The translations under genes and the position numbers were made by a program. The notes under the pieces were generated by a model that ran no database searches, was not told the origin of the DNA, and saw nothing but the letters and a program-made list of their open reading frames with translations. 27,454 nucleotides of DNA, taken from the NCBI GenBank assembly GCA_945859975.1, contig CAMAPH010000038.1:1-27454 (forward strand). Direction: 5' to 3'. Position 1 is the first letter of the stretch. Each line of letters starts with the position of its first letter. Below, one piece after another: positions 18,082 to 23,615 of the stretch. Source of the DNA: Chthonomonas calidirosea (GTDB taxonomy: Bacteria; Armatimonadota; Fimbriimonadia; Fimbriimonadales; Fimbriimonadaceae).

Positions 18082-18692
18082 TACTGGGCCAACAGGGGAG
18101 CGATTCGATCCCTGAGCGCTCGTCGGGCTCGGAGCACGCGCAACTTTGCGCCTCCGATCGTACACCCTATAATTTTGGCGATTTCTGGATATTCTCGCTC
18201 TTCTAAATCTCTCAAAACGATCATGGTTCGGTGGTGGGCCGGAAGGGCGTTGAGCGCGGACCGCAGTGCGGCTTTCCGGCGCTCGTCCTCTAGGTTCTGA
18301 ACCGGATCGTTCGTCATTCCGATCGTCATCCAATCCAAGGCACCTGCGGCTTCCTTTTGCTCAAGGTTAGATCGGCGCTGGCTCATTCGAGCCTGGTCGG
18401 TGCAAAGGTTAGTAACAATGCGCAGAAGCCACGTGGTGAACTTCGCTTCATCTCGGTAGCGGTGAAGATTCTGATAGGCCCGAACAAAGGCTTCCTGCAC
18501 CATGTCCTCGGCGTCGTCCCGTCGGCCGACCATTTGGTACGCGAATCGGTACACCAAGATTCGGTGGCGATCGAACAGGTGTTCGAACGCTTCGTACTCT
18601 CCGCTCCGCGCTCGCTGAACTAGCCGCTCGTCGGACTCAAGCTCAAGCCGACCGGTGGCGGTTGCTCCCATTGTGCTCACAATTCCTTCCAT
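18081..18692 (-). CDS. ECF-family RNA polymerase sigma factor
   Basis: DERLVQRARSGEYEAFEHL, DAEDMVQEAFVRAY, FTTWLLRIVTN, LPAHHRTMIVLRD..YPEIA..SRLxRAR-like LRVLRAR. Start is 18692 or 18671. Confidence 0.95.
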   Translation of the reverse strand: MEGIVSTMGATATGRLELESDERLVQRARSGEYEAFEHLFDRHRILVYRFAYQMVGRRDDAEDMVQEAFVRAYQNLHRYRDEAKFTTWLLRIVTNLCTDQARMSQRRSNLEQKEAAGALDWMTIGMTNDPVQNLEDERRKAALRSALNALPAHHRTMIVLRDLEEREYPEIAKIIGCTIGGAKLRVLRARRALRDRIAPLLAQ

Positions 18693-21507: not shown

Positions 21508-22236
21508 TTACGCACCACGTAACAAAAGAAGCTCGTTTGCCGTGACGGCCTGCTCTGGCGTATCCACCGAGATCGGCGATGCCACTCCCTGGACCATCTG
21601 AATCTGCATGCCGTTTTCGAGTAGCCGCAGCTGTTCAAGCCCTTCGGTTAGCTCTAGCGGACTTGGTCCGAGGGCGACGAAGCGTCGGAGCGTTTCTGGG
21701 CGGTACGCATAGATTCCGATGTGCTTCCAAACCGGAAGCTCCCGCTGATTCCGAGGATAGGGCAACGAGTACCGGCTGAAATAGAGTGCGGTTTCATCGG
21801 ATCGGAGCACTACCTTTACTGCCGAAGGCTCGTCGACCTCCGACTCGGAACACGCTGCATAAACGCTCGAAGCATGAGCGGTTGGCGAGGCTTGAAGCGC
21901 ATTCGCGCAGGCGCGAATTGTGGCGGAGTCAATCAACGGCTCGTCGCCCTGGAGGTTTACGTAAACATCGGCAGCAAGTGAGTCTGCCACTTCAGCCAAT
22001 CGGTCGGTACCGCTAGGATGATCTTGCCGTGTTAAGATCGCAGGCGCGCCGAAATGAGCCGCGGCATCAAGTATCTCCTGATCTGGGGTCGCAATCACCA
22101 CTTCATCCGCGCAGGAAGAATCTATTGCCGTGCGATAGACCCATTCCACCATTGGCTTCCCTGCCAGATGAACCAATGGCTTGCCGGGGAAACGAGTGCT
22201 TCCCATTCGGGCCGGAATGACGATGACCGTTTTCAC
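21508..22236 (-). CDS. kdsB: 3-deoxy-manno-octulosonate cytidylyltransferase
   Basis: IPARMGSTRFPGKPL, HPSGTDR, NLQGDEP, ALYFSR, HIGIYAY, EGLEQLRLLENG, SVDTPE. Confidence 0.95.
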   Translation of the reverse strand: MKTVIVIPARMGSTRFPGKPLVHLAGKPMVEWVYRTAIDSSCADEVVIATPDQEILDAAAHFGAPAILTRQDHPSGTDRLAEVADSLAADVYVNLQGDEPLIDSATIRACANALQASPTAHASSVYAACSESEVDEPSAVKVVLRSDETALYFSRYSLPYPRNQRELPVWKHIGIYAYRPETLRRFVALGPSPLELTEGLEQLRLLENGMQIQMVQGVASPISVDTPEQAVTANELLLLRGA

Positions 22237-22251
22237 CTGACTACTTAACCC

Positions 22252-22283
22252 AAAAATGAAAAAGGGCCGCCGAAGCGACCCTT
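22252..22283 (-). terminator. Intrinsic terminator with UUCG tetraloop
   Basis: Minus strand AAGGGTCGC-TTCG-GCGGCCCTT followed by TTTCATTTTT; the G-U pair forms only on the minus strand. Confidence 0.85.
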
Positions 22284-22294
22284 AGTTTTTTGTA

Positions 22295-22367
22295 CACCGA
22301 GAAGGAAGGGTTCATGAAGAACCCGCCTAACTATTGCGAGTCTTTAAAACCCACAACCCTCTCGGTG
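22295..22367 (-). ncRNA. Candidate structured RNA (three-way junction), family not recognised
   Basis: P1 CACCGAGAGGG/CCTTCTCGGTG, P2 TTGTGGGTTT/AGACTCGCAA, P3 GGGTTC/GAACCC; the non-Watson-Crick pairs are all G-U on the minus strand. Confidence 0.55.
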
Positions 22368-22385
22368 GCTATTATCTGAACTCAT
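22344..22385 (-). CDS. Candidate 13-aa small ORF MSSDNSHREGCGF
   Basis: TAAAGGAGGTG (22398-22408) lies 12 nt before the ATG; TATATT -10-like box at 22422-22427. Confidence 0.4.
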   Translation of the reverse strand: MSSDNSHREGCGF

Positions 22386-22453
22386 TTTGTTTAGCACCAC
22401 CTCCTTTAGTTGGGATAGTTAAATATACGCGAGGTTGTTCGAAATCGCGTCAA

Positions 22454-23110
22454 CTATTTTGGGACTTCTCGGCCAAATCTCGAATCGACCGATTTGACCT
22501 GATCGGCGAGCGCCGTCTCAGTCGCGCCGATCTCTTTCATGGTGTCGTCCAACCCCAGCGCAACCGCAACGTGGAGGGTTCCCGTGCTTGCCTGGGTGGC
22601 CGAGATCATCAGGGTTTGCCCGCCTTGTTTCCAGAACCAGTTCTGGACCGTCTTGCCTTCAACCTTCTCGGGAGTCACGCCAGAAAATGTGCTGGTGTAG
22701 AGGTTCACGAGGTCTTCAAGCTGAACTTTCGTAGCCCGGTCTAACTGGTACATCGCCACCGCGATGCGCTGCTGGTACATGATCGTGCCGAAAGATTCTC
22801 TCGCCGTCTCCCAGCCTTGACCACGATATGGCTGCTGAAATCGCTTCGGCAATTCGGCGAACTCGAACGAATTGGCTTCCGGGGCAAAGACTTTTACGGC
22901 CTGGTCGTAGGACGAACCGAGCTTGAGCGAATTTCCCTCGTGAATCAGAAAAAGTTCGCTCTCAGTAAAGCTTGGGGCGAGAACGATCTTTTCCTCGGCC
23001 GGAACCGTGGTCTCGCCGGAAGCAGTACTGGGCGCAGGGCCGGCGCAACCGACGAGCCCAAGCGCGACGATGGCCAAAATCCACTGCGTACTTCGGATGG
23101 GCTTGCTCAC
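22454..23110 (-). CDS. Hypothetical lipoprotein
   Basis: GTG start at 23110 giving MSKPIRSTQWILAIVALGLVGC with lipobox LVGC. The longer ORF start overlaps greA. Confidence 0.8.
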   Translation of the reverse strand: MSKPIRSTQWILAIVALGLVGCAGPAPSTASGETTVPAEEKIVLAPSFTESELFLIHEGNSLKLGSSYDQAVKVFAPEANSFEFAELPKRFQQPYRGQGWETARESFGTIMYQQRIAVAMYQLDRATKVQLEDLVNLYTSTFSGVTPEKVEGKTVQNWFWKQGGQTLMISATQASTGTLHVAVALGLDDTMKEIGATETALADQVKSVDSRFGREVPK

Positions 23111-23138
23111 GTTTGTTTCCCTATCAAGCAAAAACAAA

Positions 23139-23615
23139 CTACGGTGCGGCGACGCCGAGGATGCGGTACTTCTGCTTGCCCGCCGGCGCGACCACGTCGA
23201 TCTCTTCACCGGCTTCGCGACCGTTCAGCGCAAGACCCAGCGGAGAATCGATGGAGATTTGACTCTTGTTCGGATCGGCTTCGTATGCGCCAACTAAAGT
23301 GACTTCGAACTCGTCATCAAACTCTAGGTCGAGCAACTTGACGGTCGAACCTATGTATGCGCCATTGCCCGCGTCGGCCGGACGCTCGACTACCTTGGCG
23401 TACTGGACGGCTCGCTCAAGATCGGAGATTCTCTTCTCAAGTCGCGTCTGGTTGAGCTTGGCCTCGTGGTAGGCCGCGTTCTCACGAAGGTCTCCGTGAC
23501 TCTTGGCTTCGCGGATGGCTTCCGCGATGTTGTTCCGAACCGGGCCTTTCAGTTCCTCCAGCTCCGCCTTTAGAGCGTCGAATCCTTCTTTTGTGACCTG
23601 GATGTCCTTGGACAT
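23139..23615 (-). CDS. greA: Transcription elongation factor GreA
   Basis: VTKEGFDALKAELEEL, canonical tip HGDLRENAAYHEAK, ISIDSPLGLAL, APAG. Confidence 0.95.
   Translation of the reverse strand: MSKDIQVTKEGFDALKAELEELKGPVRNNIAEAIREAKSHGDLRENAAYHEAKLNQTRLEKRISDLERAVQYAKVVERPADAGNGAYIGSTVKLLDLEFDDEFEVTLVGAYEADPNKSQISIDSPLGLALNGREAGEEIDVVAPAGKQKYRILGVAAP

Follow-up and report, generated by a model that had tools for sequence, protein, structure and literature searches.

A small RNA gene of the Fimbriimonadaceae with a frame-conserved mini-ORF that runs into a covarying three-way junction

Does the short gap between a lipoprotein gene and kdsB hold a gene of its own, and is it the RNA or an encoded peptide that matters? 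The gap lies on the minus strand of a stretch of 27,454 nucleotides from Chthonomonas calidirosea (GenBank assembly GCA_945859975.1, contig CAMAPH010000038.1), the whole of which is called the window below. A first-pass annotation had described there a strong Shine-Dalgarno sequence (SD), a 13-codon open reading frame (ORF), a three-way-junction RNA and a terminator, and had proposed either a dual-function small RNA (sRNA) with a small protein or a structured RNA that engages ribosomes. We find that the element is a previously undescribed small RNA gene confined to one family, the Fimbriimonadaceae. Its mini-ORF is conserved as a frame and not as a peptide, and the second half of the ORF consists of the 5′ strands of two helices of the junction. 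TATATT, SD, ORF and the helices P1, P2 and P3 were all found at their proposed positions when checked by hand, and the terminator is present as well. From 5′ to 3′ the parts are:

22447..22453, minus strand: -35-like box TTGACG, aligned to (G)GAAC/GAAAC/GCAAC of relatives; it begins one base past the stop codon of the lipoprotein gene
22425..22429, minus strand: -10 box CGTAT, with CGT as the conserved core, invariant in the first alignment; TATATT (22427-22422) overlaps it
22396..22419, minus strand: 5′ hairpin P0, arm ACUAUCCC (22419-22412) with GGAGGUGGU (22404-22396), A22402 bulged; it covers the SD
22396..22406, minus strand: extended SD AAGGAGGUGGU, for which 11 contiguous pairs (one G-U) are possible with the organism's own 16S 3′ tail
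22344..22385, minus strand: mini-ORF of 13 codons, MSSDNSHREGCGF plus TAA, with ATG at 22385 and TAA at 22346-22344
22295..22367, minus strand: three-way junction of P1, P2 and P3, with a conserved AUGAAC at 22315-22310
22367-22357 with 22305-22295, minus strand: P1, 11 bp, one G-U
22356-22347 with 22343-22334, minus strand: P2, 10 bp, three G-U; its loop is the TAA stop
22324-22319 with 22313-22308, minus strand: P3, 6 bp
22252..22283, minus strand: intrinsic terminator, 9-bp stem with UUCG loop (stem-loop 22283-22262), followed by TTTTTCATTTTT

The element is single-copy in its own genome. BLAST detected it in seven of 60 relatives, all from the same genus, and a covariance model was needed for the rest. 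A first model, built from 7 sequences, matched 16 of the 46 genomes of the genus. When 185,579 species genomes were scanned with a degenerate pattern, 90 stretches were found; 80 loci were checked and 36 of them were confirmed by the model. The labels of 33 confirmed loci are Armatimonadota lineages (the phylum to which Chthonomonas belongs), mostly Fimbriimonadaceae or Fimbriimonadales, while two are labelled 'bacterium' and one 'uncultured archaeon'. None of the other 44 pattern loci, from Streptomyces, Cupriavidus and others, matched the covariance model. A second model, built from 43 sequences, detected the element in eight of 151 genomes of a phylum-wide sample, all eight from the family of the window, and in none of the 138 sampled phylum genomes outside Fimbriimonadaceae. 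Within Fimbriimonadaceae it occurs in 100 of 151 genomes (81 of the 117 high-quality ones) and in 40 of 50 genera, with one copy each. The model searches scored 21 candidates per genome, and absences are thus soft. With 40 weaker family matches added to the better ones, 80 true matches were available, 79 of them unique.

The novelty claimed for the element held in a covariance search against Rfam 15, which gave no match at gathering score across the whole window. The sole sub-threshold score in the region was for PhrS (RF01673), with 19.4 bits against a gathering score of 37. PhrS is likewise an sRNA with SD, ORF and terminator, and the aligned parts were just the SD and the terminator. Membership in this family was rejected, as the score is below the gathering score here and the match does not recur: 20 other members gave no PhrS match at E <= 0.01. 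The one Rfam match at this level among the 20 relatives, to BSnc120, lies just outside the element and reaches 30.1 bits against a cut-off of 114. ARAGORN finds no tRNA or tmRNA in the region. A riboswitch was also rejected, since the P2-P3 junction varies from 2 to 21 nt and is not conserved, which speaks against a ligand pocket, and there is no conserved regulated gene downstream. A literature search that combined phylum and genus names with sRNA terms returned nothing relevant on sRNAs in Armatimonadetes or Fimbriimonas; regulatory RNAs are not known to have been described for this phylum.

That the minus-strand RNA is structured, as had been proposed, is borne out by folding and above all by covariation. 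The minus strand folds with -62.7 kcal/mol (z = -5.3; none of 200 shuffles was as good), while z is -3.7 for the plus strand. The minimum free energy (MFE) structure of the single sequence is an alternative nested fold and not the P1/P2/P3 junction, but RNAalifold on seven relatives recovered all three helices together with the 5′ hairpin P0. The non-canonical pairs are indeed all G-U, one in P1 and three in P2. They would read A-C on the plus strand, and the many G-U pairs thus fix the strand as minus. Covariation was analysed in an alignment of 80 distinct rows, one of them a spurious reverse-strand match. Across P0, P1, P2 and P3, standard pairs make up 89.2% of the cells, compared to 37-54% when the partners are slid. 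Two-sided changes affect 23 of the 32 pairs (171 cells), a level that none of 500 shuffles reached. P1 is paired in 97.5% of the cells with seven of eight pairs covarying, P2 in 89.8% (seven of nine pairs) and P3 in 86.6% (five of six pairs). Conservation of at least 90% is restricted to GGAGGTG; to A and G within the ATG start; to the ends of P1; to GGGTTTTA, which is the apex and loop of P2 and contains the stop with the two codons before it; and, in the loop and 3′ arm of P3, to ATGAA.

The junction may not be the only fold. An alternative outer helix, GGGUUU:GAACCC, joins the P2 apex with the 3′ arm of P3 and can pair in 94.7% of the cells, although these are near-invariant bases. The alternative inner helix is pairable in 75.8%, and for pair counts the shuffle controls are not exceeded. 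A two-state fold is therefore possible. CUCGC in the 3′ arm of P2 (CCCGC in most relatives) complements GCGGG before P3 and is part of the nested fold.

Is the mini-ORF more than a chance frame? Start codons were counted in the 79 unique sequences, which stem from searches without an ATG requirement. In 71 of them the start is ATG and in four TTG, at a distance of 6-13 nt downstream of GGAGGTG and in the same frame as the stop of the P2 loop. Another three members have ATA or ATC at the start position with the frame open. The most divergent member, L120 (1501-1618, minus strand), has an ATG in another frame, from which an ORF of 18 codons extends to the UGA within the AUGAAC of P3, with an AUGA overlap. 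The distance from start to stop is 36, 39, 42 or 45 nt in 78 of 79 members, always a multiple of three, which corresponds to 12-15 codons. Most of this stretch is unpaired and variable in sequence, and that its length nevertheless changes in steps of three marks it as a reading frame. Other linkers of these RNAs have lengths that spread over the three classes modulo three (32/15/32 for the P2-P3 linker of 2-21 nt, 20/14/45 for the spacer between SD and start). Among the 77 members counted (two rows were dropped by the script), 64 stop with TAG, 13 with TAA and none with TGA, and the stop codon always lies in the P2 loop, just as the TAA of the window had been seen to form exactly this loop. 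With 75 of 79 starts, 78 of 79 members in frame and an SD of 11 nt, the comparative support that the mini-ORF is translated is strong.

The encoded peptide shows a different picture. For codons 2-7 of the 53 ORFs with 13 codons, the ratio of non-synonymous to synonymous change (pN/pS) is 1.04, compared to 1.16 and 0.80 in the shifted frames; for the 30 ORFs with 14 codons it is 0.83. In the last six codons it falls to 0.50 (0.87 and 1.09 in the shifted frames), but this part coincides with the helices. A switch between Cys and Arg tracks the covariation from U-A to C-G in P2, and other residues alternate likewise. With pN/pS around 1, selection on amino acids is not detectable, and the element does not show the conservation expected of a functional small protein. 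The first proposal thus survives in part: the frame is conserved while the peptide is not, and of the two natures considered the ribosome-engaging structured RNA fits better than the small-protein gene. Since start, frame and stop position are kept but not the residues, it is the passage of ribosomes that appears to matter and not the peptide.

Three further coding possibilities were discarded. A second ORF from the conserved AUG of P3 has a length between 3 and more than 56 codons and is not conserved. A programmed frameshift from GGG-UUU-UAG to the UGA of AUGAAC is contradicted by the frame relation (35/24/18) and by shifted frames that stop at scattered sites. A thiolactone or RiPP-like peptide would need a Cys that is not conserved.

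The SD, TAAAGGAGGTG at 22408-22398 on the minus strand, had been singled out as the strongest noticed in the window. It can pair over 11 nt with the 3′ end of the organism's own 16S rRNA (GGATCACCTCCTTA, located on contig C50), but with 14 nt the spacing from GGAGG to ATG is long. Five other copies of the SD 10-mer exist in the genome; none is followed by a comparable mini-ORF, and by eye, with frames unchecked, we take them for chance matches in coding DNA. The hairpin P0, which would cover the SD, is paired in 81.6% of the cells (80 sequences), where changes are mostly one-sided between G-U and G-C. In the window it has -7.1 kcal/mol, and in the MFE structures of 71 of 79 members it pairs three to seven of the seven SD bases, though it is barely stabler than shuffles. 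We treat this hairpin as tentative. RNA thermometers have a labile hairpin that pairs the SD, and P0 is at most a candidate for such a device.

Upstream of the SD, the annotation had pointed to TATATT as a -10 box. These letters are present, but they are the tail of the conserved CGTAT, which is of a type recognized by sigma factors of extracytoplasmic function (ECF) and not by sigma-70. ECF promoters are characterized by AAC in the -35 and CGT in the -10 region, about 16-18 nt apart. The pattern [AC]AC-N15-18-CGT occurs upstream of 65 of the 79 unique members, with a spacer of 17 nt in 51, of 18 nt in 13 and of 16 nt in one; by our own rough estimate the chance rate of the AAC/CGT pattern is about 14% per upstream region of 70 nt. 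In these 65 members the boxes read (G)GAAC, GAAAC or GCAAC, then CGT(A/C/T). The site in the window has GAC instead of AAC and scores 11.4 with the position weight matrix (PWM) of the promoter. Both the boxes and their spacing are those of ECF group 4 promoters. A scan of the region for sigma-70 promoters gave no sites; by eye, the rRNA operon of the same genome has TTGACA-18 nt-TTAAAT. The motif thus points to a promoter of the ECF sigma type (AAC-N17/18-CGT). The distance from CGT to AGGTG is 27-29 nt in the near group, so that the transcript would start at the foot of P0, in the window near 22420. More distant genera (loci L161-L180) have their promoter about 45-50 nt ahead of the SD, with an additional GC-rich hairpin between predicted start and P0.

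A candidate for the sigma factor may be found in the same genome. Among the upstream regions of its 23 sigma genes, the best motif match (score 14.8) belongs to an ECF/zf-HC2/MucB-RseB operon. This operon (L186; G000 contig C3, 114579-116770) codes for an ECF sigma factor of 198 aa, a zf-HC2 anti-sigma factor of 162 aa and a MucB/RseB-domain protein of 386 aa, and GGGAACC-N17-CGTAA lies 64 nt before its start. The RseB-like protein occurs in 138 of 151 family genomes. A motif scoring at least 9.4 is found 47-82 nt before the sigma start of the RseB operon at 14 of 25 related loci, compared to 8 of 103 control windows. In its own genus, the promoter of this RpoE/RseA/RseB-like operon resembles that of the element. 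The PWM holds about 12 bits of information and is thus unspecific, with 198 sites genome-wide at a score of at least 14; a plain search for GAAC-N16-18-CGTA gave 166 sites where about 193 are expected. The window itself has a sigma-70-family gene of ECF size (18375-18578, minus strand; ORF of about 224-236 aa) just 3′ of relA/spoT. No element-like promoter motif was found upstream of this gene (best score 0.5).

At the other end, a strict rule recognizes a hairpin with T tract at the corresponding position of 60 of 79 members, and the 19 members that fail this rule all have, by eye, a GC-rich hairpin with a weaker T tract. Judged from these signals, the element would be transcribed independently as a short RNA, from a promoter and to a terminator of its own, as the annotation had assumed, and contigs from RNA libraries cover it. 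DNA of the element is present in lake-water metagenomes. In six freshwater metatranscriptome runs a small share of a 1-kb query was found. This evidence consists of contigs, so that it does not show true ends and strand, and DNA carry-over is not excluded. One run has a contig of 154 nt that spans exactly 22247-22400, two runs have contigs of 22178-22401 and 22183-22399, and a fourth has a contig (22394-22652) that leads from the lipoprotein coding region into the element. Of this kilobase, it is thus the element that was assembled in the RNA libraries, with some molecules extending across the terminator or the lipoprotein gene. In one run there is a further contig, which has 13 differences and stems from a close relative; it corresponds to 22050-22273, from the 5′ part of kdsB to the terminator stem.

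Whose element is it, then: its upstream neighbour's, its downstream neighbour's or its own? On the minus strand of the window the order is greA, a lipoprotein gene without family, the element, kdsB and relA/spoT. The upstream neighbour is:

22454..23209, minus strand: lipoprotein gene with an LxGC lipobox; its 3′ end bears the promoter of the element

A lipoprotein homologue is encoded on the same strand immediately upstream of the element at 40 of 51 loci. There the distance from its stop to the -10 box is 2-144 nt, with a median of about 26. At the other 11 loci no same-strand homologue was found directly upstream in a search of the loci. In the window no terminator was found between the lipoprotein gene and the element, and as the promoter overlaps the end of the gene, both use one terminator. 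With a promoter at the 3′ end of the upstream gene and a common terminator, the layout is that of an sRNA nested in a 3′ untranslated region (UTR) with its own promoter.

Downstream, the linkage is looser. The region upstream of kdsB had been expected to be worth comparing in relatives, and it is conserved and covarying there, but a kdsB-type (CTP_transf_3) gene is the next one on the same strand at only 18 of 43 loci (one of the 18 was inferred from near-identity instead of scanned). At two loci it is MazG, at one an ECF sigma gene, and the rest are varied, including transporters; at no fewer than seven loci a Pfam-supported gene follows on the opposite strand. The mini-ORF is intact whatever follows, opposite-strand cases included. 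In the window the GTG of kdsB (22236) is 15 nt past the end of the U tract (22252), which leaves no room for a promoter, and where present kdsB is therefore reached by read-through. As kdsB is downstream in only about 40% of the members, the element is not simply its leader. It is a gene of its own, and its link to kdsB (18 of 43) is looser than that to the lipoprotein gene (40 of 51).

Three observations on the surroundings may be added. Besides the lipobox, W-E and F-W motifs are conserved in the lipoprotein; it matched no family of Pfam or NCBIfam, and the protein Atlas gives only 'putative lipoprotein' clusters. Its listed start, GTG at 23209, overlaps greA by about 70 nt; translation probably begins around residue 34, as does the record in the protein Atlas. 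An ORF of 136 aa with TTG start on the plus strand (22334-22744), antisense to the element and to the end of the lipoprotein gene, is most likely spurious.

How might such a gene work? We lean, with some reserve, towards a small RNA driven by an ECF sigma factor whose junction is opened by ribosomes on the mini-ORF and which would act in trans. From a promoter that overlaps the 3′ end of the lipoprotein gene, an RNA of about 170 nt would be made, reaching from about 22420, where it is predicted to start, to the terminator at 22252. Ribosomes would load at the extended SD of 11 nt, partly covered by the weak P0, and would translate the ORF of 12-15 codons. P1 and P2 would have to be melted in each round of translation, and on reaching the stop a ribosome would cover the 3′ strand of P2. 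Translation would thus switch the RNA from a closed junction to an open form and back, and in this way could gate its activity or stability, presumably towards other RNAs. In the approximately 40% of members that lie closely upstream of kdsB-relA, the element may also set the number of transcripts that pass the terminator, as a secondary or ancestral output.

Several observations weigh against this mechanism. P0 is weak, with a family median of -4.7 kcal/mol compared to -3.8 for shuffles. Four of the 79 members lack a canonical in-frame start. P1 is built like an SD and its complement (GGGAGG/CCUCCC), and this make-up is lost in some members with a fully compensated P1 (L149, L144), so that a masked anti-SD seed cannot be the general mechanism. 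In ten genomes of other genera the sigma operon has GGGAAC...(C/G)GTA while the element has GAAAC/GCAAC...CGTC/CGTT. The ends of three RNA contigs, at 22399-22401, fall within the SD, about 19 nt short of where transcription is predicted to begin. It could be, then, that the abundant RNA species does not have a full SD, although these ends may also be due to fading coverage, to a stop of reverse transcription at P0 or to real processing. Finally, two RNA contigs pass the terminator into kdsB, which fits a role in cis as well.

Such a role in cis would be that of a leader-peptide attenuator for kdsB-relA, where the position of the ribosome on the mini-ORF decides on the terminator and hence on whether ECF-driven transcription, and that of the upstream operon, reaches kdsB. 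Promoter, short ORF, structure, terminator and gene follow each other in the classical layout, kdsB starts too close to the U tract for a promoter of its own, the two contigs bridge the terminator, and at most of the 18 loci with a kdsB-type gene the latter is about 50-110 nt from the 3′ end of P1. Leaders such as those of trp, his and erm have a strong SD and a very short ORF, in which the position of the ribosome outweighs the sequence, the ORF overlaps a helix strand, and a terminator follows. Unlike them, the element lacks a conserved gene downstream, a run of regulatory codons (none for a sensed amino acid in the member peptides) and a recognizable antiterminator, and it behaves as a stand-alone unit. 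The intact ORF persists when the next gene is on the opposite strand or is unrelated, such as MazG, an ECF sigma or a transporter. A conserved antiterminator pairing was not seen by eye, and terminator sequences differ between members; the 3′ arm of P1 is, by eye, C-rich like the 5′ arms of terminators. We consider this explanation unlikely.

More doubtful still is a free-standing device that senses the capacity for translation or termination, in which the time that ribosomes spend on the ORF or at its stop sets the folding of the junction, and the state of the junction would then set RNA activity, half-life or passage of the terminator. The stop would fit such a device: in all 77 members it is readable by RF1 (UAG 64, UAA 13), it usually stands in a UAG-C context (the base after the stop is C in 66 of 77), and it lies in the P2 loop. 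UGA, which only RF2 reads, is never found at this stop, yet it ends about a third of the genes of the genome (TAA 658, TGA 621 and TAG 475 among long ORFs). If true, the element, close to greA and relA, would tie an ECF stress response to the condition of the translation machinery.

A similarly low probability is given to a small-protein gene in which the peptide of 12-15 residues (consensus ...QGG[C/R]GF) is the effector and the fold only controls translation or stability. SD, start and stop are conserved, the C-terminal Gly-Phe is near universal (GGG UUU in at least 90%), the low pN/pS of the last six codons could reflect selection, and Ser at position 3 is encoded by AGC, AGT or TCT in close relatives. 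The conserved C-terminal codons, however, are exactly the apex and loop of P2, so that a constraint on the RNA explains Gly-Phe. In the unstructured half pN/pS is about 1, the peptide changes radically where P2 covaries (CGF to RKL, RQL or RGF), and no linked modification or export genes were found among the neighbours of the loci.

It is very unlikely, in our view, that the element is a structured sRNA without translation, where ATG, open frame and UAG are by-products of constraints on the RNA and the apparent SD is a seed or a protein-binding site. SD, GGGUUUUAG and AUGAAC are conserved as nucleotides, wobble positions included, and RNA contigs begin inside the SD. Hfq and CsrA are encoded in the genome, and one GGA each occurs in SD and P1; with these two motifs only, a CsrA sponge was rejected. 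What stands against this explanation is that the unpaired and variable stretch from ATG to P1 changes only in threes (78 of 79) while other linkers do not, and that ATG is swapped for another start codon, TTG, in four members. Finally, that the region is a mere 3′ UTR with terminator of the lipoprotein gene and has no function of its own can hardly be right: the common terminator at 40 of 51 loci and the contig from the lipoprotein coding region into the element would agree with it, but not the dedicated conserved promoter, the covarying helices, the constraint on the frame and the persistence of the element at the 11 loci where no lipoprotein homologue was found directly upstream on the same strand.

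The preferred mechanism, an ECF-driven RNA that is gated by its own translation, has parallels in known systems. Pos19 of Rhodobacter sphaeroides is described (PMC5036791) as an RpoE-dependent small coding RNA of 219 nt with an ORF of 150 nt, and its regulation survives the loss of sORF translation, so that the RNA itself acts. Small RNA, promoter of the ECF (RpoE) type and small ORF are common to both, with translation being a prediction for the element. The ORF of the element is shorter than that of Pos19, with 36-45 nt; it codes for a peptide that is not conserved, and it coincides in part with the 5′ strands of a three-way junction. By sequence or Rfam family the two RNAs are unrelated. 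For AzuCR of E. coli, translation and base pairing are described to compete, and AzuC to be a conserved functional membrane protein of 28 residues (PMC8915982). Here too, one short transcript would be both translated and structured or regulatory, and the competition is the principle that we propose for the element, but with pN/pS around 1 its peptide differs from AzuC. Going by these descriptions, an ORF conserved as a frame only, or interleaved with a junction, is found in neither Pos19 nor AzuCR.

A third parallel concerns the layout of the gene. The element shares with MicL of E. coli, reportedly a sigma-E-dependent sRNA inside cutC with its own promoter, an alternative-sigma promoter at the end of the upstream gene (suggested here by the motif), a terminator in common with that gene and a neighbourhood of envelope genes (lipoprotein, kdsB). 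The mini-ORF and the three-way junction set it apart, as MicL is said to have neither a translated ORF nor such a junction.

In summary, the data show a structured RNA of the Fimbriimonadaceae with an ORF that is conserved only as a frame and is interleaved with a covarying junction. It represents the first well-supported small RNA family for Armatimonadota, and it comes with a clear architecture and, in ECF sigma factors, with a testable class of regulator. The comparative data separate the question whether an ORF is translated from the question whether its peptide matters, which makes the element an unusually clean natural case. If translation does gate the RNA, the competition seen in dual-function RNAs would be extended to a device where the ORF serves only as a switch.

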